Source: Harriotta raleighana
Taxonomy: Eukaryota
NCBI GenBank assembly: GCA_050575255.1
Contig: JBNZDD010013635.1
Location: forward strand, 2,705,670 to 2,769,669
DNA: 64,000 bases
Reading direction: 5' to 3'
A program made the position numbers and the translations under genes. Position 1 is the first letter of the stretch. Every line of letters begins with the position of its first letter. Of the stretch, positions 9,800 to 63,246 are shown piece after piece. The notes under the pieces are model-generated. The model had not been told where the DNA came from. It saw only the letters and a program-made list of their open reading frames with translations, and did not search any database.

Positions 9800-10006
9800 A
9801 TGGAGGAGGAAGTGGAAGGAACCTATCGGCTGCTGCAGACTCCTGGAGCTCGACTTGGAGCCCAGACAAAACCAGGGGTCAGCACGTTGGAGCCCCAACA
9901 GAGTTTATCCTCAGCCATGGCTGTGGCCTCACCTAAACTCCGGGGGAGAAGGATCCAGATCACAGTACGCTTCTTGGATAACACAGAGGAACAGTTTGAA
10001 GTAGAG
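9800..10006 (+). CDS. FARP2: FARP2 first coding exon (MEEEVEGTYRLLQTPGARLGAQ...RFLDNTEEQFEVE); acceptor at 9768/9769
   Basis: ATG at 9800; GAG|GTAAGC donor; start of the FERM N-lobe. Confidence 0.93.
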
Positions 10007-12632: not shown

Positions 12633-12854
12633 AGAAGTTGCTTGGGAAACTCAGTAAGTCAGGCAGCATTCATGGAGAAAGGAAAGTGAGTCAACGTTTC
12701 GGGTCCACGACCCTTCGTGGTTCTGACGAAGAGTCGTGGACCTGAAACGTTGACTCACTTTCCTTTCTCCATGGATGCTGCCTGACTTGTTGAGTTTCCC
12801 CAGCAACTTCTGTGTATTTTTCAGATTCCCAGCATCTGTAGTATTTTGTGTTTT
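12633..12854. mobile_element. Palindromic (inverted-arm) Penelope-like terminal repeat
   Basis: ~85-bp arms at 12633-12718 and 12723-12811 are reverse complements; contains a CTGACGA...GAAAC hammerhead core. Confidence 0.7.
12717..12758 (+). ncRNA. Minimal type I hammerhead ribozyme motif (PLE-type)
   Basis: GUGGUU-CUGACGA-AGAGUC-GUG-GACCU-GAAA-CGUU-GACUCAC: core CUGANGA and GAAA, stem II, palindromic ACGU helix III, stem I GUGGUU/GAC(U)CAC. Confidence 0.5.
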
Positions 12855-13235
12855 GTCATGGTTTATTTATTTCAGTTCCATCCTTGTTCCTACTCTTGGC
12901 TCAGTTACACAAACTGTTCCCCAGGTGGATGTGTGTAGGTGCTGTAGGGTGAATTGTGCTCTGAATTTCGACTTGTCTTATGCGACTGTGTCTAACCTGT
13001 ATTTGAGAATTAGGGTGAGTTGTGCTAACTTAGTGCTTAACACTGACGTATCAACCCACTGCATTGCATTCAAAAGTATATTAACTTCCTTAGAAAGCTG
13101 TGCCTGTTGTGTAAAACCAGTTGTTCATTGTTTCTCTGAGTTTAGATTGTGATCGTTGTGGATTCTGTTGGGATCCAGCTTAATACCTTAAACCTTGCAT
13201 TTGATAAGGAATCTTCCACATTCAGGTTGGAGGTA

Positions 13236-14110
13236 CAGGCAGTCCTCAAGTTACGTCAGGGTTAGGTTCCTAAGATGTGGTGTAAGTCGAATTTGTATGC
13301 AAGTCGAGTCACCCCCCTATAATGCTTACAGTAACATACAGTGATTGGTTATAGTGTATAGTGAGCTGCCCTCTCTCCCCTGCACCCCTCCTAATATGTA
13401 CAGTACTGTAAATAAAATAAAATNNNNNNNNNNNNNNNNNNNNNNNNNNNNNNNNNNNNNNNNNNNNNNNNNNNNNNNNNNNNNNNNNNNNNNNNNNNNN
13501 NNNNNNNNNNNNNNNNNNNNNNNNNNNNNNNNNNNNNNNNNNNNNNNNNNNNNNNNNNNNNNNNNNNNNNNNNNNNNNNNNNNNNNNNNNNNNNNNNNNN
13601 NNNNNNNNNNNNNNNNNNNNNNNNNNNNNNNNNNNNNNNNNNNNNNNNNNNNNNNNNNNNNNNNNNNNNNNNNNNNNNNNNNNNNNNNNNNNNNNNNNNN
13701 NNNNNNNNNNNNNNNNNNNNNNNNNNNNNNNNNNNNNNNNNNNNNNNNNNNNNNNNNNNNNNNNNNNNNNNNNNNNNNNNNNNNNNNNNNNNNNNNNNNN
13801 NNNNNNNNNNNNNNNNNNNNAAAGGCTGGAGAGTACTGTACCGCCGAGCTCACAGACTCACACAGTACCTGTACAGTACACACTCGCGTCTCGCCTCCAT
13901 CCTGTTCCTGTCCTGAACGCGTATCGTGGTCCCGTAAGTGTTGAGAGCGGCGACTCCAGTTTTCTATCGCGCGTGGGGCAACTAAAGTATTTACATAGTA
14001 GTGTCGTAACTTCGAGACCTCGGATGTAACTCGGACGTAATTTTACTGATTTTAAGTGTCGTAACTTCGAATTGTCGTACCTCGAAATGTCGTAACTAGA
14101 GGACTGCCTG
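13236..14110 (-). mobile_element. Tigger/TcMar-type non-autonomous DNA transposon, family A (contains a gap)
   Basis: TA-CAGGCAGTCCTCAAGTTACG ... CGTAACTAGAGGACTGCCTG-TA terminal inverted repeats. Confidence 0.85.
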
Positions 14111-17100
14111 TACTGTATATTATGCCTGTTTGTGGTGTTTGGAACTTTAACATGTCTGCCTTCTTGTACAGCTCCCCTTAGAATAAGAATATTCTCCAAA
14201 ATATTTCTGTATAACTACATCAACAGATCTAGTTATGGATATCGTATCAGAGAAATTTGCTAGAAGCTGTGTGGCTATTTGGTGAGAATAGGATTACCCC
14301 ACAAATGATTGAATACTGGTCAGTACTGATACGTACTGTCTAAGATTGCGTTTAAGCAATGATCAAAGAGCTGGTGGCACATCACTAGACAAGCATTAGA
14401 CATTAGGTGAGTCAGTATCTTAAAAGGAGAGTGGGGAAGTTGGAGGACGTAAAAAAACCTAAAGATAAAGCTGATTGGAGGACAGAACCTGCGCTAAAGA
14501 TCATGGGGGAGGAAGAAGAAAGTCTAAATAAATAATCCGAATTTTGGTTCTGGTATAATCCTGAGAGAGGAAGCTTGTTGTGAATGAGGAATGATGTGTG
14601 GTTTCCTGGAGGTCAATGTGGTGCTCTTTATAGTGAATCCAGAGATCAGCAGGAAGTAATGCAGTCTAAAGCCATGTTGCGGTGGTGGCAAGGTGGTTTT
14701 TGTTCTGCATTTGAGATTTGTGTACAGTAAAAGCCCATTTATCCGGCACGGATGGGACCTGGCCAGTGTCGGTTAAACGGCTTTCTGGTTGAATTATTTT
14801 TTTTAAATTCAAAATTATTTTAACATATACCATATTAATAATAGACTAAATAATAACTGATAATGACAATATTGTATGGGTATTTTATTGTAAATGTTGT
14901 ACATAAATAATAGAGTAAATATAGTAATAACAACTACTGTAATAACAGAATATTGTATGGCTACTTTATTGTAAATTTTTAACAATNGTTCTGACGAAGA
15001 GTCGTGGACCTGAAACGTTGACTCACTTTCCTTTCTCCATGGATGCTGCCTGACCTGCCGAGTGTTCCCAGNACGGGTTTTTAAAAATTAAAAACAAAAA
15101 TATTTTAACACATATATTAATAATAGACTAAATAATAGCAGAATATTGTATTAGTACTTTTATTTATATTTAACTTCGCAATCGCAGGCCTCACCCGACC
15201 TATTTTAGTGCTTTATAGGTGAGACAAGCATCACTATGCGTGAGTTCCCATTAACATAATAACGATGAAAGTAAAAAAAAGCGACTTTGAAGGGGAGGAG
15301 CGATCTCCCTCTCTGTCTCTCTCTCTCTCTNAAATACGGCCATTTGTTTGCTTTTGTTTAAAACAAAGCATGGCTTATTTAGAAGTTGCTTGGGAAACTC
15401 AGTAAGTCAGGCAGCATTCATGGAGAAAGGAAAGTGAGTCAACGTTTCGGGTCCACGACCCTTCGTGGTTCTGACGAAGAGTCGTGGACCTGAAACGTTG
15501 ACTCACTTTCCTTTCTCCATGGATGCTGCCTGACTTGTTGAGTTTCCCCAGCAACTTCTGTGTATTTTTCAGATTCCCAGCATCTGTAGTATTTTGTGTT
15601 TTGTCATGGTTTATTTATTTCAGTTCCATCCTTGTTCCTACTCTTGGCTCAGTTACACAAACTGTTCCCCAGGTGGATGTGTGTAGGTGCTGTAGGGTGA
15701 ATTGTGCTCTGAATTTCGACTTGTCTTATGCGACTGTGTCTAACCTGTATTTGAGAATTAGGGTGAGTTGTGCTAACTTAGTGCTTAACACTGACGTATC
15801 AACCCACTGCATTGCATTCAAAAGTATATTAACTTCCTTAGAAAGCTGTGCCTGTTGTGTAAAACCAGTTGTTCATTGTTTCTCTGAGTTTAGATTGTGA
15901 TCGTTGTGGATTCTGTTGGGATCCAGCTTAATACCTTAAACCTTGCATTTGATAAGGAATCTTCCACATTCAGGTTGGAGGTACAGGCNTGAAAGTAAAA
16001 AAAAGCGACTTTGNNNNNNNNNNNNNNNNNNNNNNNNNNNNNNNNNNNNNNNNNNNNNNNNNNNNNNNNNNNNNNNNNNNNNNNNNNNNNNNNNNNNNNN
16101 NNNNNNNNNNNNNNNNNNNNNNNNNNNNNNNNNNNNNNNNNNNNNNNNNNNGTCTCTTGTGTGTCTTTCTCTCTGTCTGTGTCTCTCTCTCTATGTCCCT
16201 CTGTGTGTGTATATGTATCTCTCTCCCCCTCTTTCTCTCTGTCTATGTGACTCTCTGTGTCTGTGTGTCTCTCTTTGTCTGTATGTGTCTCCCTCCCTCT
16301 CTGTATCTAAGTGTGTGGCTCCCTGTGTGTGTATGTGTCTCTCTATCTGTGTCTGTCTCTCTGTGTGTTTGTGTATAAATGGCTTCTGCCCAGAGCTCTT
16401 GAGTCTCACCAGTTTAGACACACCTAGTGGCCAACCAGGAGTACTGCACTCGCTTGCAACAGTCCATTCATGAAACGGGTCATCACTATTCGCTGGATAA
16501 CGTCCGGTTTAGCGAACTGGGACTTTTTTTTGAGATGGTGGTTGAACGGGTATTCCGATTATTCGAGTCACGGATAAGCAGGGTTCTACTGTACTTAACT
16601 TCTGCAATGGCCGCCACGGAGGAAAACAAAACGGCAGCGTTTTGAAAAACGGCAGTAGTGCGACTTTAGGCTCGACTAGTGGCCAGCCGAAACACCAACA
16701 TAGTAATCGTGTGCGACAATCGATTCATTAAATGTNTATATTATGCCTGTTTGTGGTGTTTGGAACTTTAACATGTCTGCCTTCTTGTACAGCTCCCCTT
16801 AGAATAAGAATATTCTCCAAAATATTTCTGTATAACTACATCAACAGATCTAGTTATGGATATCGTATCAGAGAAATTTGCTAGAAGCTGTGTGGCTATT
16901 TGGTGAGAATAGGATTACCCCACAAATGATTGAATACTGGTCAGTACTGATACGTACTGTCTAAGATTGCGTTTAAGCAATGATCAAAGAGCTGGTGGCA
17001 CATCACTAGACAAGCATTAGACATTAGGTGAGTCAGTATCTTAAAAGGAGAGTGGGGAAGTTGGAGGACGTAAAAAAACCTAAAGATAAAGCTGATTGGA

Positions 17101-19285
17101 GGACAGAACCTGCGCTAAAGATCATGGGGGAGGAAGAAGAAAGTCTAAATAAATAATCCGAATTTTGGTTCTGGTATAATCCTGAGAGAGGAAGCTTGTT
17201 GTGAATGAGGAATGATGTGTGGTTTCCTGGAGGTCAATGTGGTGCTCTTTATAGTGAATCCAGAGATCAGCAGGAAGTAATGCAGTCTAAAGCCATGTTG
17301 CGGTGGTGGCAAGGTGGTTTTTGTTCTGCATTTGAGATTTGTGTACAGTAAAAGCCCATTTATCCGGCACGGATGGGACCTGGCCAGTGTCGGTTAAACG
17401 GCTTTCTGGTTGAATTATTTTTTTTAAATTCAAAATTATTTTAACATATACCATATTAATAATAGACTAAATAATAACTGATAATGACAATATTGTATGG
17501 GTATTTTATTGTAAATGTTGTACATAAATAATAGAGTAAATATAGTAATAACAACTACTGTAATAACAGAATATTGTATGGCTACTTTATTGTAAATTTT
17601 NNNNNNNNNNNNNNNNNNNNNNNNNNNNNNNNNNNNNNNNNNNNNNNNNNNNNNNNNNNNNNNNNNNNNNNNNNNNNNNNNNNNNNNNNNNNNNNNNNNN
17701 NNNNNNNNNNNNNNNNNNNNNNNNNNNNNNNNNNNNNNNNNNNNNNNNNNNNNNNNNNNNNNNNNNNNNNNNNNNNNNNNNNNNNNNNNNNNNNNNNNNN
17801 NNNNNNNNNNNNNNNNNNNNNNNNNNNNNNNNNNNNNNNNNNNNNNNNNNNNNNNNNNNNNNNNNNNNNNNNNNNNNNNNNNNNNNNNNNNNNNNNNNNN
17901 NNNNNNNNNNNNNNNNNNNNNNNNNNNNNNNNNNNNNNNNNNNNNNNNNNNNNNNNNNNNNNNNNNNNNNNNNNNNNNNNNNNNNNNNNNNNNNNNNNNN
18001 NNNNNNNNNNNNNNNNNNNNNNNNNNNNNNNNNNNNNNNNNNNNNNNNNNNNNNNNNNNNNNNNNNNNNNNNNNNNNNNNNNNNNNNNNNNNNNNNNNNN
18101 NNNNNNNNNNNNNNNNNNNNNNNNNNNNNNNNNNNNNNNNNNNNNNNNNNNNNNNNNNNNNNNNNNNNNNNNNNNNNNNNNNNNNNNNNNNNNNNNNNNN
18201 NNNNNNNNNNNNNNNNNNNNNNNNNNNNNNNNNNNNNNNNNNNNNNNNNNNNNNNNNNNNNNNNNNNNNNNNNNNNNNNNNNNNNNNNNNNNNNNNNNNN
18301 NNNNNNNNNNNNNNNNNNNNNNNNNNNNNNNNNNNNNNNNNNNNNNNNNNNNNNNNNNNNNNNNNNNNNNNNNNNNNNNNNNNNNNNNNNNNNNNNNNNN
18401 NNNNNNNNNNNNNNNNNNNNNNNNNNNNNNNNNNNNNNNNNNNNNNNNNNNNNNNNNNNNNNNNNNNNNNNNNNNNNNNNNNNNNNNNNNNNNNNNNNNN
18501 NNNNNNNNNNNNNNNNNNNNNNNNNNNNNNNNNNNNNNNNNNNNNNNNNNNNNNNNNNNNNNTGTCGTAACTTCGAGACCTCGGATGTAACTCGGACGTA
18601 ATTTTACTGATTTTAAGTGTCGTAACTTCGAATTGTCGTACCTCGAAATGTCGTAACTAGAGGACTGCCTGTACTGTATATTATGCCTGTTTGTGGTGTT
18701 TGGAACTTTAACATGTCTGCCTTCTTGTACAGCTCCCCTTAGAATAAGAATATTCTCCAAAATATTTCTGTATAACTACATCAACAGATCTAGTTATGGA
18801 TATCGTATCAGAGAAATTTGCTAGAAGCTGTGTGGCTATTTGGTGAGAATAGGATTACCCCACAAATGATTGAATACTGGTCAGTACTGATACGTACTGT
18901 CTAAGATTGCGTTTAAGCAATGATCAAAGAGCTGGTGGCACATCACTAGACAAGCATTAGACATTAGGTGAGTCAGTATCTTAAAAGGAGAGTGGGGAAG
19001 TTGGAGGACGTAAAAAAACCTAAAGATAAAGCTGATTGGAGGACAGAACCTGCGCTAAAGATCATGGGGGAGGAAGAAGAAAGTCTAAATAAATAATCCG
19101 AATTTTGGTTCTGGTATAATCCTGAGAGAGGAAGCTTGTTGTGAATGAGGAATGATGTGTGGTTTCCTGGAGGTCAATGTGGTGCTCTTTATAGTGAATC
19201 CAGAGATCAGCAGGAAGTAATGCAGTCTAAAGCCATGTTGCGGTGGTGGCAAGGTGGTTTTTGTTCTGCATTTGAGATTTGTGTA

Positions 19286-20760
19286 CAGTAAAAGCCCATT
19301 TATCCGGCACGGATGGGACCTGGCCAGTGTCGGTTAAACGGCTTTCTGGTTGAATTATTTTTTTTAAATTCAAAATTATTTTAACATATACCATATTAAT
19401 AATAGACTAAATAATAACTGATAATGACAATATTGTATGGGTATTTTATTGTAAATGTTGTACATAAATAATAGAGTAAATATAGTAATAACAACTACTG
19501 TAATAACAGAATATTGTATGGCTACTTTATTGTAAATTTTGAACAATACTATGTAAATAATAGATTAAATACACTAATAACAGATACTATAATAACAGAA
19601 TATTGTATTAGTAGTTTATTATTTATACAGTAAAACTCAGTTTATCCGGCACCCACGGGACCTGGCCAGTGGCGGTTAAACCGTTTTTCCAGTTGAACGG
19701 GTTTTTAAAAATTAAAAACAAAAATATTTTAACACATATATTAATAATAGACTAAATAATAGCAGAATATTGTATTAGTACTTTTATTTATATTTAACTT
19801 CGCAATCGCAGGCCTCACCCGACCTATTTTAGTGCTTTATAGGTGAGACAAGCATCACTATGCGTGAGTTCCCATTAACATAATAACGATGAAAGTAAAA
19901 AAAAGCGACTTTGAAGGGGAGGAGCGATCTCCCTCTCTGTCTCTCTCTCTCTCTTTGTTTTTGTGTGGTCTCTCTCTCCCTCTCTCTGTGTGTATGTGTG
20001 TGTCTCTCTCTCTGTCTTTGTGTGTATCTCTCTCTGTCTGTCTGTGTCTCTCTCTCTCTGTATGTGTGTCTCTGTCTCTTGTGTGTCTGTCTCTCTGTCT
20101 GTGTCTCTCTCTCTATGTCCCTCTGTGTGTGTATATGTATCTCTCTCCCCCTCTTTCTCTCTGTCTATGTGACTCTCTGTGTCTGTGTGTCTCTCTTTGT
20201 CTGTATGTGTCTCCCTCCCTCTCTGTATCTAAGTGTGTGGCTCCCTGTGTGTGTATGTGTCTCTCTATCTGTGTCTGTCTCTCTGTGTGTTTGTGTATAA
20301 ATGGCTTCTGCCCAGAGCTCTTGAGTCTCACCAGTTTAGACACACCTAGTGGCCAACCAGGAGTACTGCACTCGCTTGCAACAGTCCATTCATGAAACGG
20401 GTCATCACTATTCGCTGGATAACGTCCGGTTTAGCGAACTGGGACTTTTTTTTGAGATGGTGGTTGAACGGGTATTCCGATTATTCGAGTCACGGATAAG
20501 CAGGGTTCTACTGTACTTAACTTCTGCAATGGCCGCCACGGAGGAAAACAAAACGGCAGCGTTTTGAAAAACGGCAGTAGTGCGACTTTAGGCTCGACTA
20601 GTGGCCAGCCGAAACACCAACATAGTAATCGTGTGCGACAATCGATTCATTAAATGTGTCATCGCTGTTCTGCTGATTTATCGAATCAGGACTTTTTTTT
20701 GAGGTGCCGGTTCAACGGGTTTTCTGATTCATTGAGTCATGGATAAACGGGCTTTTACTG
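19286..20760. mobile_element. TcMar/Tigger-like MITE, family B (outer element)
   Basis: TA-CAGTAAAAGCCCATTTATCC ... GGATAAACGGGCTTTTACTG-TA. Confidence 0.85.
19628..20513. mobile_element. Related family-B MITE nested in the outer copy, carrying a TC/TG microsatellite
   Basis: TA-CAGTAAAACTCAGTTTATCC ... GGATAAGCAGGGTTCTACTG-TA; the outer sequence resumes after the TA. Confidence 0.8.
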
Positions 20761-28251: not shown

Positions 28252-28356
28252 CAAAAAGCCTATGGCGAGTCTCTGATGAATGAAATTTTCCTGCGTCTTA
28301 ACCTAACTGAGAGTGATTATTTTGGCCTGGATTTCCAGAACAGCCTGGGGAATGAG
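28252..28356 (+). CDS. FARP2: FARP2 exon, FERM (QKAYGESLMNEIFLRLNLTESDYFGLDFQNSLGNE)
   Basis: CAG acceptor, GTATGT donor, 105 nt, DYFGL FERM motif. Confidence 0.92.
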
Positions 28357-33479: not shown

Positions 33480-33522
33480 ATTTGGCTAGAGCCTGCAAAA
33501 CTTATTGTGAAACAAGTACAAA
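33480..33522 (+). CDS. FARP2: FARP2 exon, FERM (IWLEPAKLIVKQVQ)
   Basis: TAG acceptor, GTAAGT donor, 43 nt, phase-compatible with neighbours. Confidence 0.9.
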
Positions 33523-34604: not shown

Positions 34605-34683
34605 GACCAAAGAACACCACATTAAGCCTGTCTGTGAAGTTCTTCCCTCCAGATCCTGGCCAGCTACAAGAGGAATACACAAG
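34605..34683 (+). CDS. FARP2: FARP2 exon, FERM (RPKNTTLSLSVKFFPPDPGQLQEEYTR)
   Basis: AG/GT boundaries, 79 nt, KFFPPDP motif. Confidence 0.93.
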
Positions 34684-34818: not shown

Positions 34819-34916
34819 ATACTTGTTTGCATTGCAGATTAAGCGGGACCTTGCAGAGAATAGACTAATGTGTACTGAGAACACTGCAGCACTTCTCACC
34901 TCTCATCTCCTGCAGT
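34819..34916 (+). CDS. FARP2: FARP2 exon, FERM ([32 protein letters not shown])
   Basis: AG/GTGAGT boundaries, 98 nt. Confidence 0.93.
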
Positions 34917-35547: not shown

Positions 35548-35662
35548 CTGAAATCGGGGATTATGATGATGCTGTAGATAGGGAGCACCTGAAACAAAAC
35601 ACACTCTTGCCAAACCAAGATAAGTTGCAGGAAAAGATCATGGAATTCCACAGGAAACACAG
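35548..35662 (+). CDS. FARP2: FARP2 exon, FERM (SEIGDYDDAVDREHLKQNTLLPNQDKLQEKIMEFHRKH)
   Basis: AG/GTGAGT boundaries, 115 nt. Confidence 0.93.
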
Positions 35663-36611: not shown

Positions 36612-36759
36612 GGGCCATTCTCCAGCGGAGTCTGATTTCCAGGTGTTGGAGATCGCACGGAAACTTGAAATGTACGGAATTCGGTTTCACCCAGCCTCTG
36701 ATAGGGAAGGAACTAAAATCAATCTTGCTGTCGCTCATTTGGGAGTGCTGGTCTTTCAG
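36612..36759 (+). CDS. FARP2: FARP2 exon, FERM ([26 protein letters not shown]...LGVLVFQ)
   Basis: AG/GT boundaries, 148 nt, LEMYG motif. Confidence 0.94.
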
Positions 36760-36943: not shown

Positions 36944-37039
36944 GGCAATGTAAAAATCAACACCTTCAACTGGTCGAAAATTCGGAAGCTTAGTTTCAAG
37001 AGGAAAAGATTTCTCATCAAGCTGCATCCTGAAGTTCAT
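36944..37039 (+). CDS. FARP2: FARP2 exon, FERM C-lobe ([32 protein letters not shown])
   Basis: AG/GT boundaries, 96 nt, [14 protein letters not shown] motif. Confidence 0.94.
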
Positions 37040-38394: not shown

Positions 38395-38558
38395 GGTCCA
38401 TACCAGGATACTTTGGAGTTCCTACTGGGTGACCGTGATCTATGTAAGATTTTCTGGAAAAACTGCGTTGAATATCACACCTTCTTCAGACTCATGGACC
38501 AACCAAAAGCAAAGACCAAGCCTGTTTTCCTCAGTAGAGGCTCCTCATTCCGTTACAG
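38395..38558 (+). CDS. FARP2: FARP2 exon, FERM C-lobe/FA ([12 protein letters not shown]...[14 protein letters not shown]...SRGSSFRY)
   Basis: AG/GT boundaries, 164 nt. Confidence 0.94.
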
Positions 38559-39251: not shown

Positions 39252-39320
39252 CGGTCGGACACAGAAGCAGCTTGTCGATTACATGCGGGAGAGTGTGGTT
39301 AAGGCAACTCCTTATCAGAG
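39252..39320 (+). CDS. FARP2: FARP2 exon, FERM-adjacent domain (SGRTQKQLVDYMRESVVKATPYQR)
   Basis: AG/GTATGT boundaries, 69 nt, SGRTQ motif. Confidence 0.93.
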
Positions 39321-39972: not shown

Positions 39973-41584
39973 ACAATTTTGGGGGAGAATCTGAGGAGCT
40001 GCTATTTTAAATGTTTTAATGCACCTCTACAAAATATGCCATATTTATCCTAATTTTTCCAACAATTTTAGCATCCTTGATTAAGGCATTGCAGACCTGG
40101 GGGATTCAGTGTAATTCAATGTAAAACAGCTTGATCAGGAATAAAATTAAAGCTTGTTGCATAATCTTGGGAAACGTGAATCCGAAGCCCCGAATGATAC
40201 TGTTGGTATCATCTCTTTGAGCATAGCATGACTGCCAATGAGCATATATTTTTAGCCAGAGGCTACTTCCTGCCATTTGTCTCCTCATATACACCTTCAT
40301 ATATACACTTTCAAATATACAGTCAGTTTTTCCTACTTTCCTTTCCTTCCTACTTGACTGTACAGCGCCTTGGGACATCCTCCCGACTTGAAAGGCACTA
40401 TTCAAATGTAATTTTAATTGATTGATTGATTCATGAAATATTTTTAACTTGGGGAATTTTAACACTATTGTCATCTGCTACATTTGATACTTCAATTGGA
40501 ATTTAACTCTGATTTGACAGATGATAATGACATGTCTTACTATTATCATTGCTATGAATGTGATTTACTGTTGTCTTCCTGATATTATTTGAAATAAATG
40601 TTTTTATTGTTTGAATTGGCCGCATAGTAAATTGTTAACTTATCATTGCACCCTGTTGGGAGTGGGAATTCTCTCTAACACTTTGGAATTATCTTGCTTG
40701 GTGTCCACCTTTTTGTTGCTCTGATTTGAAGACCTTTCTTCACCAACACAATAACAGGAACACAGTTTCAATGCCGTCTCTTTTCTGTCCAGCACCTGGG
40801 GACGTCCTCCTGACGTGAAAGGCCAAGTGTAATTTTGTTGTTTTTGTTAATACATGTATGTTGTGCACAACCTTAATTATTCAATTAAGGAACTGTTGAT
40901 CAAAGGTTAATAATTGTGTGTGTATTGGGTTCAATGCTTACTCCAATCCTCTTCACTGCAGCATTATTGTATGTGCAATATATATTCTAGTTAGTATCGA
41001 ATTGGCTGCTTTAAATAAGTGGCATACCATTAATAACCCAATGGTGTAATAGTACAGTGTTGATGGTATGTTTAGGTAATTCTACTTTTGTTTGATGATT
41101 TAGCGCTCTTTGAGGCTCACTGGGAATGGTTACAGAATTGGGAGTGCAGTATAGATGATTTGTTTTGAATGTTGTTGTTGTTGAATGAAAAACTTCTGTA
41201 AAAGAATTTTAATAATTGTATTGAATTTGGTCGAGTCCCAGGCTTCAGGTAATCTACCAGAACTGCTTGACATTTACTTCTGTGTCAACTCTCTCAATTC
41301 ACTTTGCAATCTTGCCCCATGTGTGAATGTGAGTACAGTATAGGGTTTCCTTTTTATGCTTCACTTTTAACTGTCTTTCTCCTATTTTTGTTTCAAAGCT
41401 GTTGTAGGGGCTCATGTCTCGCTTGCATTAACGCTCCCCTGTTTTTATTTTGGGTGCAGTATTGCCTTCATTGCCCACTCCCCACTCGCTCTGTGTACGA
41501 CTGTCCGTTGAGTGACTGCAGTGCTGTCTGTCTGGTGCAGGGGTTTCTTTCTCACATCCTTACTAAATACTCTCTGTTCTGCAG

Positions 41585-41642
41585 GCGGTACAGCAGAGCA
41601 CAAGTCTCGCCTCGGAATTTGAGCGCAGACGTGCCCAAACAG
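41585..41642 (+). CDS. FARP2: FARP2 exon (RYSRAQVSPRNLSADVPKQ)
   Basis: CAG/GTTAGT boundaries, 58 nt. Confidence 0.88.
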
Positions 41643-42380
41643 GTTAGTCCTGCGGCACTTTATCTTTGGGATGTGCATCAGTGTATTGTCCCTGTGAAGT
41701 TCTTATTTAACAACTTATTATGTGGATTGTTCTCTCTTCTTCGTAAGAATAATTGCAGGGGACTTCCTGACCATATTCTCCTATCACTGAGAATATGAAC
41801 GCCAATAGGTAGCAGACACTTACACAATTACTGTTGGTGCCACTCTAACAAATTAGCTGTGAACGAGATAGTGAAACTATGCTTGATCTTTCTCTTCTCC
41901 CTCTTGTTCCCCCTTCCTGAAATGGGCAGATGCCTCCCTTGCACGTGGCATTCCCATCCTGCTGGCAAAACTTGTACAGTTAAGGCAATCTGGGCTAAGC
42001 GGTGAATAATTCTGGGAATGACCAGAATTGACCTCTCCAATGATCTTCTGGTTTGGGAGCTGTGTAAAGCGGTTGCTTTGTTCCTGCCAATCTTGTCTGT
42101 TTCATTTCATGAACTCCCTCACCCCGCAAAAAATTTGCACATCAACTTCTTGTCTGTTGAGGTGCTACGGAATCTCATTGCATATTTCTCATCCAATTAT
42201 TTTCTGTTCCGGGTCTTGCTATTCATCGATAAAGAAATTTAAGGGCATGTGTTATTTGGCTAATTTGTGTACTGTAAGATATCCAAAAACTGAAGCAAAA
42301 AGAATACATTTGATTTTGACCGGCTTCAAAACTAATTATGGGTTCCAAATGTGTTGTTGATTTATTTATTTCTCTTCCAG

Positions 42381-42621
42381 AGTTTATCAGTTACTGAATG
42401 TTTAGAGGCCCCAGGGTCCCCTTCCTCAGCGACCATCTCCTTCCAGTCCATCCAGTCTACTTCTAAAAGTTCTGCCGATCGACAGCCCGTCCATCCTGTT
42501 AATGCAAGCATGCTCGTTGACAAGACCGCCCAGAAGTCCCCAGCAGAAGTGAACATGAGTCCAGTGTTTGAACAGTCGTGGAAGAAGAATTCTGACCATC
42601 CCTCTTCAATCTCCTTGCAAG
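42381..42621 (+). CDS. FARP2: FARP2 linker exon, short form (SLSVTECLEAPGSPSSA...ISLQG); donor position uncertain (42621, 42678 or 43029)
   Basis: Phase-0 CAG acceptor; must end in phase 1 to join the exon at 56381; peptide resembles FARP2 SISFPEGLRTPASPSSA (recalled). Confidence 0.65.
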
Positions 42622-43604
42622 GTTCTGTTGCTGAAGTTGCAGCCAGCTGCAGCCCCTGCTCTTCAGTTTGCGATGAGGGTAGTAGTGTGGTTAGGGAGGA
42701 TTACAGTGAGGGCAGGTCCACTCAGAAAAATGACAATGATGGGGATGATTATACCAGAGGTGTATTTATTACTGAGAATGAGTATAATGTTAGCCAGCTT
42801 CGGGGAAGGGCAATGCCAGTTTTCACATTGACAAACGCTCAGTTGCAACTCACAGAAGAGTTCATTGATGATGATCCTACTGAGATTTCTTTTTTTGCGG
42901 GCGGGTCGGAAGCATTTTCACCTTGTTACAGTGGGCTAGGGAATAGCTTGAATGGTCTTGCATCTTACAGTGAGCAAGACCATTCACCAATGATAAATTC
43001 CAACCTTAGCAAACACGTCTGGAGCTCACGTAAGTACGGCAATAATAATGTGGAGGTGGGTTCAGACGAAGACTTTGAATTTAAGGGGGGGAGCGATTTC
43101 AATGGCAACGGCCAAGCAATCAACACGGCTGACCTTTTTGAAGTGAAGGAGCAAATCGATCGGATGCATGGGCATTTCAGCAGATCTGAAACCAGCTCTC
43201 TCGTGAACAACCAGTCACAGAGCAGCTCACTGACAAACCTTGGGCTAAACGGTTTGTCTGAAACGGCATCGTTCGGGATGGCCAACTCGGCCAATCAGTC
43301 TGAAGCCAGTTCAATGGTGAATTTCCCCACCTATTCAGTGCGCTCTGAATCCAGCTCCGCGCTTCAGTTCGGCGATGTGATCGATCAGTTTGAGCAATTG
43401 AGTTACCCCCCCACCACCACTGAGGATTCTACCAGCAGTGGGTCTGGGTCATGGGATTCAGACCACGGTGCCCCTCTCGAGGGCAACTTCTTCTTCAGTA
43501 ATCCATTTGCACAAGTCACAGCCAATAACTTCACTTTTAGTTTCAAGAATGAGGTTAATGGTTGTGCACACGGAGAAAGGGAGGAGAGGAGCAGTCTCTG
43601 TTGA
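42381..43604 (+). CDS. FARP2: Extended/terminal form of the linker exon: 407-aa Ser/acidic tail of a predicted GEF-less FARP2 isoform
   Basis: Uninterrupted reading frame from the acceptor to TGA at 43602-43604, in AT-rich DNA where background ORFs are mostly under 130 aa; non-repetitive, coding-like composition. Confidence 0.7.
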   Translation, partial: SLSVTECLEAPGSPSSATISFQSIQSTSKSSADRQPVHPVNASMLVDKTAQKSPAEVNMSPVFEQSWKKNSDHPSSISLQGSVAEVAASCSPCSSVCDEGSSVVREDYSEGRSTQKNDNDGDDYTRGVFITENEYNVSQLRGRAMPVFTLTNAQLQLTEEFIDDDPTEISFFAGGSEAFSPCYSGLGNSLNGLASYSEQDHSPMINSNLSKHVWSSRKYGNNNVEVGSDEDFEFKGGSDFNGNGQAINTADLFEVKEQIDRMHGHFSRSETSSLVNNQSQSSSLTNLGLNGLSETASFGMANSANQSEASSMVNFPTYSVRSESSSALQFGDVIDQFEQLSYPPTTTEDSTSSGSGSWDSDHGAPLEGNFFFSNPFAQVTANNFTFSFKNEVNGCAHGEREERSSLC

Positions 43605-50582: not shown

Positions 50583-50645
50583 AATAAAAAGCTTCTTTGA
50601 ATGGACATTGTGTGGGTTTGTTCTTTGTCTTGCTGTTTTTTTCAC
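50583..50645 (+). terminator. Candidate poly(A) site (AATAAA plus downstream GU/U-rich element) for the truncated isoform
   Basis: AATAAA at 50583 followed about 20 nt later by TTGTGTGGGTTTGTTCTTTGTCTTGCTGTTTTT; other AATAAA at 44213, 44664, 44971 and 48061. Confidence 0.35.
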
Positions 50646-55450: not shown

Positions 55451-56380
55451 GAGTTAGTCATTGAGGAATATGACTGAACTAATATTCCGTTCATTTATAA
55501 CTAGAAATTGTAGTCCATGCTATAGAGATCAAAAATGAAGTTATTAGTACTGTATTGTGTTTGTGATTTTAGAGATGATACAGAGAATGTTGTGCAATAG
55601 GTACACAATTCAGTTTTTTTAATAAATCTTTAGCTCTGTGCAAAAGACTATTTTCCTTTTGTGGCAAAGATTTATTGTGTAAAAACTGTTTTGTCTGTTG
55701 TAATCCATCAGGCACCATCGAAAGTACAGGTGAATTCCAAACCTCACCAATAGCAATATTATACAGTACAGTATCAGGCTGAGGATCATCTACTCCCCTA
55801 AATGGACTTGCTAATGCAAGACTCACAATGATTTAAAACACGAATAATAGTGTGAGTCATGCTTAACACAGAGCACTTCCTTATTGTGTCACCCTGTTTA
55901 GAGAACAATGAAACTGTTGTACCACTGGACCATCATAGAAGTTATTTTGGCCTCTAATATACTGTACATAGTTGCTACAAACAATATGAACCAGATCCCA
56001 CACAAGTTAAGAGTTTAACCAGAGGAAAACTGCTGACATCCTGTTGGATGGGGTATTCATACAGTAAGCAGTTGTAATGTTAAGATGTGCTGCTGATAAT
56101 TTCATCACTCAAGGTTTGCTGAAATTCACACCTGTAAGCACCACCAAGCCCTTACAGATCCATCTGAAAAATAGTGTCCAAGTAGCTAAGTACATCATTT
56201 ACACATTGAAAGTATTTCATTAAGTCTGAGAAAATTCTGCTAACTTTCTTTAAGGTAGGTTCTGAAGTCGGCCACCAAACCTCAACTATACCCCTCCATT
56301 GCTGTGATGAAGTTGTTTTTATGTCTTCCAGACTTTTGCTGGGATAGTTTTTCATGGGTTCTGTATTTGATTAATTCTAG

Positions 56381-56556
56381 GTAGTTTAACTGGAAGTCCT
56401 CCCTTTGGCACGAAGAACACTTTGAATATGTCCATTCCTGGATTCCAGATGTCTAACCTGAGTCTGCCTGGCCAGCCATTGTCACCATTACAGAGCCCGA
56501 TTCTCAGCGAGGCCGGGAGCACAAGATTGGATGACGAGGAGGAAGTTCGGCGGAAG
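56381..56556 (+). CDS. FARP2: FARP2 exon, linker (GSLTGSPPFG...SPLQSPILSEAGSTRLDDEEEVRRK)
   Basis: Phase-1 TAG acceptor, AAG|GTTGGA donor, 176 nt. Confidence 0.85.
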
Positions 56557-57373
56557 GTTGGAAATATGAATGAGTGATTTGGGTGAATGGGGAAAGTTTG
56601 TGTGCTGTGTTTCACATTCAACACCCTTTACAGTATATTCTGTGGAGATCTTTGAGACGTCTCGATGACATGATATGGCCCTATGTAAAATGCAAGATTT
56701 CTTATTAGTATTATAAGTTAGCAGCTGGAACAGATAACAACGACAACAACAAAATTACAATGACAACAACAAAATTACATTACGCCTTTCACATCGGGAG
56801 GACGTCCCAAGGCAGTGATAAGATGACAAACTGTAGCTCAGTACCTTCAGTACATGGTAAAGGTAAAACAGCACAACAGGCTTGAGGTGTGCTCTCTTTA
56901 CCTCGCACAACTATCCATTCTTCATGGGATGAGATCAGAAAATGCACACCATCTCTGGGACTCCAGTAACCCAATATTCACACATTCGAAGAGAGGTCAC
57001 TAGATAGTGATCCTTGCATTTGCTATAGTGATCGTGATTGGGAATGAGAACTCAGATCATGTTGCTGGGAACAAAGGGTTTCACAGTACAGTATTTACTG
57101 TAAAATGTAATGACTATATTTTGTGGGCTTTCCTGAATTAAGAAAGCTCTTCATTTCTAATTATCATAATGTCCTGTTTTGGGGGAAAATAAACAAAGGT
57201 GTGTACTTATGAAAAAGATAACAAATATAAACACTGTGGTGATTTAGAAACTCCCCGGAATAGATGGAGCATGTTTGACCTTCATTTTCTGTTGCTTACC
57301 TTTTGCGTTGTCTAATTGGTTTGATGTGAAACTTCTGAGATAGTGGCTTGATACCAGGCGGGTGTTTTTGCAG

Positions 57374-57463
57374 CGTTACCCAGCAGACAAAGCATACTTC
57401 ATTGCGAAGGAAATCCTGACCACAGAAAGGACCTATCTCAAGGATCTGGAAGTAATAACAGTG
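57374..57463 (+). CDS. FARP2: FARP2 exon, start of DH domain (RYPADKAYFIAKEILTTERTYLKDLEVITV)
   Basis: AG/GTAAGT boundaries, 90 nt, TERTY DH motif. Confidence 0.94.
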
Positions 57464-57734
57464 GTAAGTGTGTGTTCCCTTGCCTGCTTCCATTTTGCTA
57501 AGTGACTGTGGTGTTTACAGCAATGCAAATTTATATCAATATCGCGCCTATTAGGTCTGGAGGATGTTTCAAATTGCTGGATGGTTTGAGGTTGGCGCTT
57601 TAGCTGGGGATGGGGGCTATGTGGGTGTGGGGGATAAGGGATGTGAAAAATGGGGGAAAACTTGGTCAAAGAGTAAGTTATAGTTTACTAGTGGTTTGCT
57701 TGTTGATTGGTGTTGTATTGTCTCCCTCTCCCAG

Positions 57735-57868
57735 TGGTTCCGCAGTGCAGTTATCAAAGAGAATGCCATGCCTGAGGGACTAATGACCCTGCTATTTTCC
57801 AACATTGATCCCATTTATGAGTTTCACCGGGGATTCCTGAAAGAGATAGAACAGAGACTCGCTCTTTG
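57735..57868 (+). CDS. FARP2: FARP2 exon, DH (WFRSAVIKENAMPEGLMTLLFSNIDPIYEFHRGFLKEIEQRLAL)
   Basis: AG/GTGAGT boundaries, 134 nt. Confidence 0.94.
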
Positions 57869-58179
57869 GTGAGTCCTTCACTTTCTTTAGCTGTGTACTG
57901 TAAAGGTGGTTTCTAACCCATGGGTCCCATGGGTAGTTTTAACATTCGACATATATTTTGGGTTATACCTCTTCCCCCCAAAAAGTAATTACAATTATTG
58001 TGCATTGTTAAAAACTCATCATGTAGTGGTAGAACATTGCTTATGTTCTGCAAGGAAGGATTTAATCTTCGAGAGAAGGTTTCGTGCAAGACCTTCTTCA
58101 AGGTTTTAGTTGACCCGAATGACCCCATGCAGTAGCTGTGGGGACAGTTATGTATTTGTTATCCTTTTTTTTCCTTCAG

Positions 58180-58261
58180 GGAAGGACGATCCAATGCTCA
58201 CGTGAAAGGAGATTATCAGAGAATCGGGGATGTTATGCTTCGGAACATGTGTGTTCTTAAG
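58180..58261 (+). CDS. FARP2: FARP2 exon, DH (WEGRSNAHVKGDYQRIGDVMLRNMCVLK)
   Basis: AG/GT boundaries, 82 nt. Confidence 0.92.
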
Positions 58262-59471
58262 GTGCGGAAAGGCAGAGTCATTATGGAGAGTAATGACTAT
58301 TTTATTCAGTGTTTGTCATATTTCTTTCATATGTATCATTGTTAATGATTCGTGTGTGACCTTGAGTAGAAAGCTGCAGTGTCATTCTTGGCGAAGATGA
58401 GATATATATATTAAAAAGTGCCAATTGTCTCCCACACTTTTATTGTTTTTCCTAATACTGGGGTGCTGTGAGCAATTGGCTGCCACATTTCACCCACAAA
58501 TATACAGTCAATGCACTTTACAGTATATTCTGTGAAGCGCTTTGAGACGTCTAGAAGACGTGAAAAGTGCTATATTAAAATGGTTGCCCTGCAGTCTCTT
58601 TCCACGAGTGCACATTATTCCAGGTTGAGCATCGGTTGGTTATTCAAACTACAAGTGACGTCACAGCCAAATCCAATCCTGTCTGCACCAGAAATCCACA
58701 TGCATGTACTTCCACCTGGATAATTGTCAATATTAGGAGCTGTGACTAATTTTCCCCTCCCTTAACCAGGGTGCGAGAACTAACTGCAGCTGTTCTCAGC
58801 TAACTCAGCACAGTACATTGAAATGCATCAGCATGATGATTCCATTCATACATACATCATGACCTTCAGGTGATAATTTGGACAAACTTGTTGCGGTGAA
58901 CTCCTGCCCACCAGGAAGTGTGTTTTGTGCCAGACAAGTTTCTATCAGTTGTGAGATAGTGGGAGGCTTTATCCCATCAACTGGGGGCGAAATCCAAAGC
59001 TAAATCCTGGATGTATGAGAGTGCTACAGTTTCACTCTGTACTACCACATAACATTTCAAAGAAAAGAATGCAACACATCCTCCAATAAATAAATATTGC
59101 TGTAGCCTGCTCTGCCAGCAGCAAGTTGGCAATTGGTAAAACAGAAAGCGATGCCATCTGTGTAATGTATTTGGCTACATTTTTACTTGGCGTGTGGTAG
59201 TAATACTGTGAGTCAAATGGACGTTGAGATATGTGCTGTGGTGCCAAGCATTCTATTCAATGGCAAGTTAAATGGACTCATGAGTGTAGCGAATGGTTCC
59301 ATCATGGGCCTGAAGGGAAAATAAATGATGTGATTGATCATTCTTACCCTGCTCTAAGAGGCATGTTCACATGAGAGGTTTAAGATCGCTGAGCTTCTGC
59401 TCGATGTGTTGGAAGCTCTTTCATATCCTTAAATAACGGCCTTAATGAGATTATAACCTTTTTATCGTCAG

Positions 59472-59709
59472 GAGTTTACCGGTTACCTCCAGAAACATGA
59501 CGAGGTCTTGACAGAACTGGAGAAAGCCACCAAGCGCTCCAAAAAACTGGAGGCTGTTTACAAAGAATTTGAGTTGCAGAAGGTGTGCTATCTGCCCCTC
59601 AACACGTTCCTACTGAAGCCCATCCAGAGGCTGATGCACTACAAACTGATCCTGGAGCGACTCTGCAAGCACTACCCTCCTGATCATCAGGACTACGGAG
59701 ACTGTCAAG
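59472..59709 (+). CDS. FARP2: FARP2 exon, DH (EFTGYLQKHDEVL...CYLPLNTFLLKPIQRLMHYKL...DYGDCQ)
   Basis: AG/GTCAGT boundaries, 238 nt, LLKPIQRL motif. Confidence 0.95.
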
Positions 59710-59965
59710 GTCAGTATAATGTGTTGGACACTGCGCACAAAACACAAATGTATGTTTCACATAAGTTTCGCCCACAATTTACTTTAACGCATATTCCATG
59801 AAGCGCTTTGAGATGGCTCGAAGACATAATAAAGCACCATATCAAATGCAAGCATTGTTATTCTGCAATCATGATCACAAGGGCTGTGCCTGATGCATTC
59901 TCACAGAGACCCTGAAGGAGATCAGGGAGATGGTGTTTCTTTTTGACCCGGATTTCCCTTCACAG

Positions 59966-60096
59966 AAGCGCTGATGGAGGTTGGCGAGATGGCCGCTCAG
60001 TTGGAGAGCAGTTTGATTAGACTGGAGAATTTTCAGAAACTCACAGAGTTGCAACGAGACCTCATTGGTATTGAGAACCTGATCCTGCCAGGAAGG
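59966..60096 (+). CDS. FARP2: FARP2 exon, end of DH (EALMEVGEMAAQLESSLIRLENFQKLTELQRDLIGIENLILPGR)
   Basis: Phase-1 CAG acceptor, AGG|GTAAGC donor, 131 nt. Confidence 0.92.
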
Positions 60097-60227
60097 GTAA
60101 GCGGGAAAATACAGAGAAATAAACAAAAATGATTCCGATAAGATCAGGTCCACATCAATTCTAAGGAAATATTTTTTGAGAAGAGACATTTAAAAATTAT
60201 CATTAGGATTCTGGATAATCCTATATA

Positions 60228-61021
60228 CAACAACAACAACAACAACAAAATTACACTTATAGAGCACTTTTCACATCGGGAGGACGTCCCAAGGTCCTGA
60301 ACNACTTATCACATCGGGAGGACGTCCCAAGGTCCTGAATAATTAGGTTGGGTACCGAGCAGGTCGGGATAGGGGGAAGGAGAATAGGAGATCAGGGAAN
60401 AATTACACTTATAGAGCACTTTTCACATCGGGAGGACGTCCCAAGGTCCTGAACAATTAGGTCGGGTACCGAGCAGGTCGGGATAGGGGGAAGGAGAATA
60501 GGAGATCAGGGAAAGAGTAGGAGGGGAGCAGAATGCATGGTCGAAGAGGAAGGTCGAGACCAGCCTTGAAGGAGGAAAGGGAGGAGGCGAAGCGAAGGGA
60601 TTGTGGGATGGAGTTCCAGAGTGTGGGGGCAGAGAAGTTGAATGCGGGGCCACCGATGGTAGGGCGGTTTGGGTGGGGAAATGCAGCAGGCCATAGCCTG
60701 CTGAACAGNAATGCCGGGCCACCGATGGTAGGGCGGTTTGGGTGGGGAAATGCAGCAGGCCATAGCCTGCTGAACAGAGGGGACGGGCAGGCTGATAGGG
60801 AGACAGTAGATTGGAGAGATAGGTGGGGGCAAGGCCGTCAGTGGCTTTGAAAATGAGGACGAGGATCTTGAATTCGACCCTCTGGGAAATGGAGAGCCAG
60901 TGGAGACGGGCGAGGATGGGAGTGATGTGGTTGCGGAGCCTAGTACGGGAGAGTACACGAGTTGCAGAGTTCTGAATGATCTGCAGCTTGTGAAAGGAGG
61001 AGCTGGGAAGGTTGACTAGGA
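60228..61021 (-). mobile_element. L2 (LINE2) 3' fragment: ORF2 C-terminus, 3'UTR and (TTG)n tail
   Basis: KLQIIQNSATRVLSRTRLRNHITPILARLHWLSISQRVEFKILVLIFKA..GLAPTYLSNLL is a typical L2 ORF2 end; small n-separated duplications inside. Confidence 0.88.
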
Positions 61022-61122
61022 GAGAATATATAATTGATGCAATACACCCAGATCGTTTCAGCTCAAATGAAACAGAAACTCGGGCTAGTGAAAGTGCTTT
61101 GGGTTCTACACAAACAATTATA

Positions 61123-61406
61123 CAGTAAAAACCCATGTATCCAGCACCCTCGGGTTGGGGGGTGGGGGGCTTAATTGAATATGACGGATATTCGGGCAGC
61201 AAGTTGCCAAAAACCTACTTTTTTTTTTCAAAACATACCATATTAATAATAGACTAAATAACAACAGAATATTGTATGGATACTTACCAATGAAGCATTC
61301 CAGCACACTTCAGTAAAATGATCGTTTCAAAAGCATTCCAGCATTCGTAAATTTAAGCATTCGTAAATTTAGTGTGCGCACGTCCACGCATTGCATGCTT
61401 TTACTG
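61123..61406. mobile_element. Family-B-related MITE, deleted derivative
   Basis: TA-CAGTAAAAACCCATGTATCC start; similar to 63247-63650; ends GCTTTTACTG. Confidence 0.7.
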
Positions 61407-61425
61407 TGCATTCATTTCTCCTCAG

Positions 61426-61494
61426 GAGTTTATTCGGGAAGGCTGTTTGTACAAACTTACGAAAAAAGGTCTGCAGCAGAGGATGTTCTTCCTG
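61426..61494 (+). CDS. FARP2: FARP2 exon, PH1 (EFIREGCLYKLTKKGLQQRMFFL)
   Basis: AG/GTAAGT boundaries, 69 nt. Confidence 0.94.
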
Positions 61495-61560
61495 GTAAGT
61501 GAATCATTAACCTTACATGATCATGTCCTCTACATTACCCGGAGAATCGAGGTGAGAATC

Positions 61561-61724
61561 TGTGCGCAATTTGGCTGCCGCGTTTCGCCCACAAATATAC
61601 AGTCAGTATTTTCCTGCTTTTCTTCCCCCGACCCCTCCCCCCACTTGACTGTACAGCGCCTTGGGACGTCCTCCTGACGTGAAAGGCGCTATATAAATAC
61701 AATAAATAAATAAATAAATAAATA
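61561..61724 (+). mobile_element. SINE core plus L2-type tail with (TAAA)n
   Basis: TGTGCGCAATTTGGCTGCCGCG ... CAGCGCCTTGGGACGTCCTCCTGACGTGAAAGGCGCTATATAAAT. Confidence 0.78.
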
Positions 61725-61951
61725 ATCTCACACCTTGCTATTAATTACCATGTGTGCAGAGCTGATAGCCTCCCATATACCTAATCCTTGACTATTGATT
61801 TGGCTACAGGTATCTACAATAACCGTTCATTCTAGTGTATGTTCCATTGTCTATTCAGTTCTTACGGACCAGTATGTCCATTTTCATCTCATATCTTGAT
61901 ATTTTATTGGTGTCCCAATTTATGAGCTGCCTTGTATGTTTTCTGTCCTAG

Positions 61952-62041
61952 TTTTCTGATGTGTTACTGTACACAAGCAAGGGAGTGACTGTCACCAACC
62001 AGTTCAAAGTGCATGGCGAGCTGCCCCTCTATGGCATGATT
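61952..62041 (+). CDS. FARP2: FARP2 exon, PH1 (FSDVLLYTSKGVTVTNQFKVHGELPLYGMI)
   Basis: TAG/GTGAGT boundaries, 90 nt; last exon recognisable in the window. Confidence 0.92.
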
Positions 62042-63246
62042 GTGAGTATGCCTAGAAATTTTTACAGTGATTTGAACGATTCAGGCTTGATTGTACTGTG
62101 TTAATCAGTCCTACATGCAAAGTAGATTTGTTCACAGGATTCAACATTAATTGTGTAGTAAGACTATTTGTGTCACATTGACTGGCCGGGAAACAACAGG
62201 GAGGTAGCACTTGTCTTTCTAGGTTAGCACTTGTGGTGTCAATGTGATTGTCTGTTTCTTTGGTTTCTGTCTGTCTGTTTCTCCGCGTTCTGTATGTTAT
62301 GATTGGTTTTGTAACAGATTTAGAAACCAATACTATTTGAAAAATAATGGGGTATATTTCTGATGAAAATTGCCTTAAACAGAACACTCAATGGTTGCTC
62401 TTATCTAACCTCAGAGCAGATATGCTTCATGTGTTTTGTGCCATGATTTGGACAGGAATGTTTGTGCCATGACTGGGACAGGAAGATTTGGCTGGAAATG
62501 GTAACGGAGCAGAAAGATGGCATCAAATCCCAAAGAAATTATGTTGTGCTCAATAACTTGTTTTCAACAAATCTTGTGATGTAAATGTTTTGCAATTGTC
62601 AAAACCTCACCAATCTCCCCTGGCTCTATCTTACATTGGTCCAACATATTAGAATTACACATGTGCAATACATACACATTATAGCATGGAAATAGGCCAT
62701 TCGGTTCAACTCGTCTCTATGGGTGGTGGTAGTAAACAGGAGCCTCCACCCCACCTAATCCCCTCTCTCATCCCCCCTATTCCTTTCCCTCTATTCCTGC
62801 GAAGATCTGAGGATCAGGACTGATAACTATATCAAAGTAAGGCTCAAATGTTGGTTGAGGCTTGTAGCTACAAGCGAGTAAACTCACTCGCACCAACAAA
62901 GTCCTTTATTTCTACGATAAGGCCACCCTGTAATAAATGTACTCCTTCATGCTGTCGGCACATGAACATGAGTAATACTTTGCAAACTTATATTGTTAAA
63001 CAGAGCAAGGAGTGGGAGAATTCCACTCAAAGAATGAATTTATGATGCCAGGGTCATGTTGAAGCAAAGCTGTGGGTGTGGGTGAATGTCAGAGGAGCTG
63101 TGACAGTCTTAGCTTCTGTAATTCAGCTTCTGGAAGCATGGGAACAGTTTGTTGCACAAACTGACACAGAATCTGTTTTGTCCTTCTCCAAGGCAATGCC
63201 CAGAGCCAGTTTTATTTAACCCCTCACGTACAGAGGAGAAGTAATA

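Follow-up and report, generated by a model that had tools for sequence, protein, structure and literature searches.

A composite exon of FARP2, transcribed in chimaeras and conserved to mammals, likely encodes a GEF-less, FRMD7-like scaffold

The stretch of Harriotta raleighana DNA analysed here, 64,000 nucleotides long and called the window throughout, contains FARP2. We read the region from 42381 to about 51000 as a transcribed and conserved composite exon, and its 801-amino-acid product, a FERM-FA protein with no GEF part, as a likely FRMD7-like membrane scaffold; we give this whole reading a probability of about 0.8. That the GEF-less FARP2 isoform is real and coding is close to certain. 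The isoform is expressed in relatives of the species, deeply conserved and apparently uncharacterised; the new element is an account of the origin of the FRMD7 tail.

The FARP2 gene and its composite exon

FARP2 exons were placed by tblastn of FARP2 proteins against the window, together with splice sites and phases. The gene has FERM and FA exons followed by DH-PH-PH exons, and in a tree of FERM domains it falls into the FARP2 clade (support 98/98) and not with FRMD7, a separate FRMD7-like gene being located on contig C13686. Eleven shared coding exons encode the FERM and FA regions on the forward strand (9800-41642, ATG at 9800): 9800-10006, 28252-28356, 33480-33522, 34605-34683, 34819-34916, 35548-35662, 36612-36759, 36944-37039 (which encodes the KRKR motif), 38395-38558, 39252-39320 and 41585-41642. 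Together they comprise 1182 nt, or 394 codons, and all internal junctions are GT-AG.

The next acceptor, at 42380, is followed by 407 open codons up to the TGA at 43604. The sequence-only reading of this DNA had claimed this frame, and both peptides that it quoted are found in the ORF, which, measured from stop to stop on the forward strand (42336-43604, 422 amino acids), exceeds every other N-free ORF of the window in length. It had also predicted that joining the tail to the 394 upstream codons would give a protein of 801 amino acids with no DH-PH; the eleven exons and the tail, joined in silico, gave exactly this, with no internal stop.

The exon has two possible uses. Its 5' part (42381-42621, forward strand; 241 nt, 80 codons plus 1 nt) is common to both isoforms, and at 42621/42622 the GEF route leaves it in phase 1 and continues in frame into 56381, in agreement with the 240-300 nt expected for this route. 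The exit is a weak internal 5' splice site, AAG/GTTCTG (42619-42627, forward strand), recognised from its sequence and from the coinciding junction of P0099, a RefSeq-type model of 1051 amino acids. The downstream exons of the GEF isoform, encoding DH and the first PH (56381-62044, forward strand), run beyond the window end. The coding extension specific to the short isoform (42622-43604, forward strand, 327 codons) is acidic, Ser-rich and predicted to be disordered. When the 981 post-donor nucleotides were shuffled 2000 times, no shuffle stayed open beyond 188 of the 327 codons. Additional phase-1 donor-like sites occur within the composite exon at 42760, close to the junction of shark model P0105, and at 43030 (CAC/GTAAGT), a strong consensus at which RNA depth nevertheless does not drop.

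A single-chain AlphaFold2 model showed a folded FERM domain and an unstructured tail (pLDDT below 50), as would be expected of the long, probably disordered tail that had been proposed; with regard to an ERM-type fold-back on the FERM domain, the tail in this model is likewise unstructured. None of the three tails (FARP2, FARP1 and FRMD7-like) matched a Pfam family, and no match to the FARP2 tail was found among PDB sequences. Searches of the ESM Atlas with the FARP2 and human FARP1 tails yielded no usable feature match, and the structure matches all had TM values of 0.21 or lower.

RNA of related chimaeras across the composite exon

Seven of the 13 listed sequencing runs were used, all from relatives of H. 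raleighana and none from the species itself. No listed run is recorded as RNA: X2, X4 and X6 are presumably RNA, with depths that reflect expression level poorly. X11-X13 are single-cell libraries, X12 and X13 being stranded raw reads from one sample.

The splice joint 41642>42381 was found in 17 reads of X12, in 12 reads of X13 and in one X2 contig, and contig X4-10 was spliced from the FERM-C exon into 42378-43263. X12 depth rose from 0 over the upstream intron to 11.6 in the half-exon bin and lay at 20-61 between 42516 and 48095; in X13 the depth was 5.5 in the half-exon bin and 4.7-7.4 over the ORF. This profile implies read-through of the internal donor in at least half of that sample's transcripts. 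For X2, the contig depth was 138 for the read-through and 214 for the shared part, against 9-13 for intron contigs, although contig depth measures level poorly. The X2 contig sequence breaks at 42593, 29 nt upstream of the internal donor, and contig X2-9, 8471 nt long, extends from there to about 50.9 kb. Transcript coverage ended near 50.5-51.1 kb, inside the intron and ahead of the next GEF exon. Hence, in related species, transcripts are spliced into the exon, read through its internal donor and end within the intron, as in a composite terminal exon; reads across 42622-43604 extending beyond the short donor had been named as the check to be made.

By RNA coverage the composite exon is about 8-8.7 kb long and only 1.2 kb of it is coding. 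The remainder is a long 3' UTR (43605 to about 51000, forward strand; the end, from contig 42593-50.9 kb and stranded depth, is approximate, 50.5-51.1 kb). The earlier description of a hidden 1.2-kb exon is therefore right for the coding part but not for the exon, and the form is not hidden, as database models of 750-830 amino acids exist. The sequence offers candidate poly(A) signals at 50583 (AATAAA) and 50692 (ATTAAA). Neither a poly(A) tail nor a read across 42621>56381 was seen among the listed read ends and joints of the relatives, most of which came from repeats; one depth profile ran as far as 49740. GEF exons were found spliced in X4 contigs.

Four X4 and X6 contig pieces lying wholly within the coding part of the exon contained no gaps. 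The contig indels listed (12 of 193) begin at 43610, past the stop codon.

Conservation of the FARP2 tail

A search with the tail returned 137 proteins of 712-2030 amino acids. The 120 matches listed comprise 66 with FERM and tail but no DH, 44 in which tail and DH occur together, and 10 in which the end of the tail is missing. Logan contigs of 2.4-9 kb are the source of 16 of the 66 GEF-less proteins; these contigs must presumably be spliced, since a frame of so many exons would otherwise not fit. The post-donor part alone, used as query, returned 116 proteins. Named matches came from chimaera, ray, sturgeon, teleosts, frogs, squamates, turtles, birds, marsupials and placentals; in searches with the FARP2 and FARP1 tails no invertebrate or jawless-fish homolog was recognised.

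The tail is 92% identical to that of a Callorhinchus milii model. The 801-amino-acid form shows 69% identity to a stingray model and, over 795 amino acids, 56% identity to mouse D3Z4C0, a 795-amino-acid protein seen on 81 contigs. The partial human protein KAI2527866.1 carries the FARP2 tail (48% identity over 314 amino acids); over 482 amino acids it is identical to a 795-amino-acid member of its cluster that was seen on 237 contigs. The tail is thus kept from chimaeras to mammals with its frame unbroken; a frame broken in related species was one of the conditions that the sequence-only reading had named as counting against it.

In 59 aligned short forms, the mean column conservation was 0.82 for FERM, 0.47 for the shared linker, and 0.79 and 0.77 for two blocks of the tail. 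The first block, motif A (42819-42920, forward strand; 0.79 in the 59 rows), reads (F)TLTNxQLQ(L/V)(T/S)EEFIDDDPxEISFFAGGSEAF and has a homologous block in FARP1 tails (hhalign, FARP2 versus FARP1, 94.8%). The second, motif B-C (43185-43510, forward strand; 0.77), reads SETSSL...ANQSEASSMVNFPxYSVRSESSSAxQFxDxIxQLEQLSYPPTTTEDS...WDSD...NLFFSNPF and has 47 of its 107 columns at 90% or above. The NPF that ends motif C, a possible EH-domain motif, occurs in just 110 of 235 FARP2 tails (NP[FL] in 182), and its interpretation as such a motif was dropped for this reason.

Some database models deviate from this pattern. Bird models P0008, P0012 and P0013 fuse the GEF-less form to a septin domain (PF00735), probably through annotation fusion with the adjoining gene. 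The C. milii model P0001 (800 amino acids) omits the FA exon and substitutes 20 intron codons (compare 41523-41584 of the window), which looks like a prediction error. In bird and turtle models (P0010, P0011, P0015, P0020 and others) the whole tail is joined to GEF exons after NPFAQAT, suggesting a third form of about 1350 amino acids.

FARP1 and an FRMD7-like gene in the same genome

The FERM-C exon of FARP2 has two strong paralogs in the genome, on contigs C13720 and C13686, and the DH exon has just two strong matches. The C13720 gene is FARP1, with all GEF exons present. At the same position it contains a composite exon (L014:6304-7554, G000:C13720, minus strand) with a phase-0 acceptor and a 416-codon frame, in which a weak phase-1 donor, CAG/GTCCAG, follows after 76 codons and is itself followed by 340 further codons. 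When the FARP1 tail was used as query, 97 proteins matched; 63 of these have no GEF part, among them human A0A1B0GV68 (801 amino acids). Directly past the FARP1 donor, 92 of 98 FARP1 tails carry IP[YF]IDCSD, which presumably resembles an FFAT-like motif; none of 235 FARP2 tails carries it.

The C13686 gene encodes FERM-FA, ends in an exon of 320 codons or more and has the 69-nt and small exons too, their phases unchanged; its last three exons share their phases with FARP2. From this architecture and its separate clade in the FERM tree we take it to be FRMD7. The tree was built with no outgroup and gives no order of duplications, and searches with the tails returned no named FRMD7 sequence. A kinase gene lies on the opposite strand about 12 kb beyond the last exon, and between the two no convincing DH-PH match was found, the single match (23% identity, E 0.006) falling at the kinase edge. 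The three best matches of a GCK-III kinase exon fall on the contigs of the FARP2, FARP1 and FRMD7-like genes, which is explained if the blocks were duplicated, since duplication would give such neighbours; we assume the kinases to be STK24, STK25 and STK26. In the FRMD7-like gene (L022), two copies of the acceptor region lie 129 nt from each other where the last exon begins, and each adjoins a single N. This is probably an assembly artefact, so that some of the exon start may be missing.

The FARP1 tail profile (98 sequences) scored 59.9 bits against the FRMD7-like exon and 44.4 bits against the FARP2 tail of the window, with maxima among the reported shuffles (of 800) of 9.9 and 6.7, respectively; block-shuffled controls stayed below 10 bits. 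The FARP2 tail profile scored 1.5 bits against the FRMD7-like exon, within its shuffles (maximum 6.9). Using hhalign, the probabilities were 99.6% over 278 columns for FARP1-FRMD7, 94.8% over 79 columns for FARP2-FARP1 and 0.6% for FARP2-FRMD7, where no direct tail similarity was detectable; the FRMD7 profile consisted of only 4 sequences. Direct profile alignment of the FARP2 and FRMD7 tails, which had been suggested as a check, gave no significant match. When 1.84 billion proteins were searched blind with the FARP1 tail, 39 matched; three of these were nearer the FRMD7-like exon (E 2e-9, 2e-7 and 5e-4) and none was a FARP2 tail. Motif B-C of FARP2 had no clear match in FARP1 save for an STSSG-SD block (21.7%, hhalign).

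Sturgeon FARP1 TEEFIDDDPANVSFYAGG aligns with TEEFIDDDPTEISFFAGG in the FARP2 tail of the window, and SSGTESSDSDSE...SLQL is common to FARP1 and the FRMD7-like exon. Judged from these alignments, the FARP1 tail is homologous to both the FARP2 tail and the FRMD7-like last exon and bridges them, and a common ancestry of the three tails is highly probable. The proposal that this arrangement reflects the ancestral state behind FRMD7 gained direct support through the FARP1 exon and tail; the FARP2 tail alone did not match FRMD7.

Comparison with known systems

GEF-less FARP2 and FARP1 isoforms are already in sequence databases (D3Z4C0, A0A1B0GV68, the partial KAI2527866.1 and macaque XP_073866883.1), as unreviewed models with the same read-through, FERM-FA plus tail and no DH. 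A literature search in which subscription journals were thinly covered found no description of vertebrate GEF-less FARP isoforms, their conservation or their link to FRMD7; transcriptome supplements may list them. A search by the accessions D3Z4C0 and A0A1B0GV68 found no paper. The short isoform mentioned in the accessible parts of PMC11477271, PMC7507005 and PMC12215363 belongs to other proteins or is a 3-exon FARP1 form. The available text of PMC6041286 describes FARP1 and FARP2 each as one FERM-DH-PH-PH protein whose linker is not conserved, and that of PMC3633374 states that the FRMD7 C-terminus has no homolog; as far as these texts go, both views overlook the composite exon.

In composite terminal exons and intronic polyadenylation, a weak 5' splice site competes with a downstream 3' end. 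FARP2 differs from the usual case in that its read-through brings in 327 conserved codons together with some 7 kb of UTR instead of a short truncating tail.

FRMD7, like the short FARP2 form, consists of FERM-FA and a long tail from a large last exon, with no GEF. It has 12 coding exons, as does the short form (PMC9957179, available part). FRMD7 differs in being a separate gene with no GEF exons, whose tail matches FARP1 strongly and FARP2 not directly. According to the portions available, it binds CASK or RhoGDI and promotes Rac1 signalling (PMC3633374, PMC3742540), and its C-terminus is needed to bind RhoGDI and activate Rac1 (PMC3742540). In C. elegans, one FARP locus, frm-3, gives rise to the GEF-less FRM-3A and the GEF form FRM-3B, the latter made by splicing within the last exon of the former; the likeness to FARP2 is one of splicing logic. 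FERM-FA alone, as well as FRM-3A, rescues worm frm-3 mutants (PMC7260190, accessible sections).

Alternative explanations

If the RNA signal came from unspliced or retained intron, the ORF would be a non-coding leftover. Single-cell libraries such as X11-X13 can hold pre-mRNA, and the donor is weak, but depth was near zero both in the upstream intron and ahead of the next acceptor (at 55688-56331, 0 in X2 and X4 and 0.1 in X11, against 61.8 in X10, which behaves as DNA). The near-zero depth before 56381 excludes retention of the whole intron, and with a frame unbroken from chimaeras to mammals and near-invariant motifs this explanation is extremely improbable. Alternatively, the tail could be mainly a long internal exon of a GEF of 1330-1370 amino acids (tail plus DH-PH), the stop-ended form being a by-product. 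This would account for the 44 models with tail and DH among the 120 listed and for the single junction right after NPFAQAT that many bird and turtle models have in common; RefSeq X1 models point the same way. However, no phase-1 GT is present in the window at the NPFAQAT position, RNA passes the stop and goes on for 7 kb, and DH is absent from all 16 Logan-sourced FERM plus tail proteins among the 120 listed, while the junctions of mammal, fish and frog models differ from model to model, like those of forced gene predictions. We consider this very improbable. The isoform could also be real and its likeness to FRMD7 convergent, long Ser-rich and acidic tails having arisen independently, as the missing direct match between the FARP2 and FRMD7 tails would suggest. 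Since the FARP1 tail bridges both, exon sizes and phases agree and block-shuffled controls stay below 10 bits, convergence is distinctly unlikely.

A different question is what the short form does. It could act mainly as a competitor: its FERM-FA would take up the sites on plexin, SynCAM and aPKC as well as those on lipids, so that GEF output falls, with the tail of secondary importance. The short form retains the FERM-FA region that binds aPKC (PMC6503954, available part) and, in exon 36944-37039, the KRKR lipid patch (PMC6041286, available text), and it is abundant in the RNA of relatives, as judged by the X2 contig depths given above (138 versus 214). A competitor, however, has no need of a 327-amino-acid extension, the motif blocks of which are better conserved than the shared linker. 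In addition, the GEF-less relatives have positive functions: FRM-3A rescues in worms (PMC7260190) and FRMD7 activates Rac1 through RhoGDI, for which its C-terminus is required (PMC3742540), according to the accessible parts of both papers. For these reasons a role mainly as competitor appears rather unlikely, and our analysis moderately favours motif-based scaffolding as the main role of the short form. The two roles can be compatible.

Proposed mechanism and implications

Under the scaffold reading, splicing at the weak donor at 42621 would yield the 1050-amino-acid DH-PH-PH protein. When the donor is skipped and the transcript ends about 7 kb further on, presumably by cleavage, the short 801-amino-acid form would result, so that competition between the donor and the 3' end near 50.5-51.1 kb may set the ratio of GEF to scaffold. 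FERM-FA would anchor the short form at membranes through lipids and receptors common to the long form, and the acidic, Ser-rich motif blocks may be binding sites that recruit other partners. Tail homology, exon phases and neighbours suggest that the two-ending design is likely older than the FARP1/FARP2/FRMD7 duplications, and that FRMD7, an eye-movement disease gene, likely arose by retaining only the short, GEF-less ending. A wider proposal, which we offer tentatively and would not yet back against its negation, is that the FARP composite exon has given two products since the worm-vertebrate ancestor, and that all jawed vertebrates, human included, express FRMD7-like forms of FARP1 and FARP2 that lack the GEF part and are in some cases the main product; these forms would carry much of the GEF-independent FARP function and cushion the loss of FRMD7 outside the eye-movement circuit.

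From the composite exon, about 1 kb of supposedly intronic sequence in human FARP1 and FARP2 is likely to be coding, and the tail motifs provide an alignable guide to reading variants in the last exon of FRMD7. A published Farp2 knockout, according to the available part of bioRxiv 2020.01.15.908434, deletes the promoter and first coding exon; both FARP2 forms would therefore be lost, and rescue with a long cDNA tests one only. Crystal structures show the FARP GEF module in an autoinhibited state (work cited in the accessible text of PMC6041286), which makes the GEF-less form a testable source of GEF-independent effects. GEF-less forms likewise make testable the suggestion, found in the available text of PMC3633374, that FARP1 and FARP2 cover for FRMD7 elsewhere in the brain.

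Two minor observations concern introns of FARP2. In intron 1 (12584-20657 of the window), stretches of 580-990 nt are repeated at 99.8-100% identity around runs of N, probably an assembly duplication. In an intron of the GEF part, a 263-amino-acid frame on the reverse strand (60423-61214), which holds an N and a local repeat, resembles what we take to be the end of a LINE reverse transcriptase.
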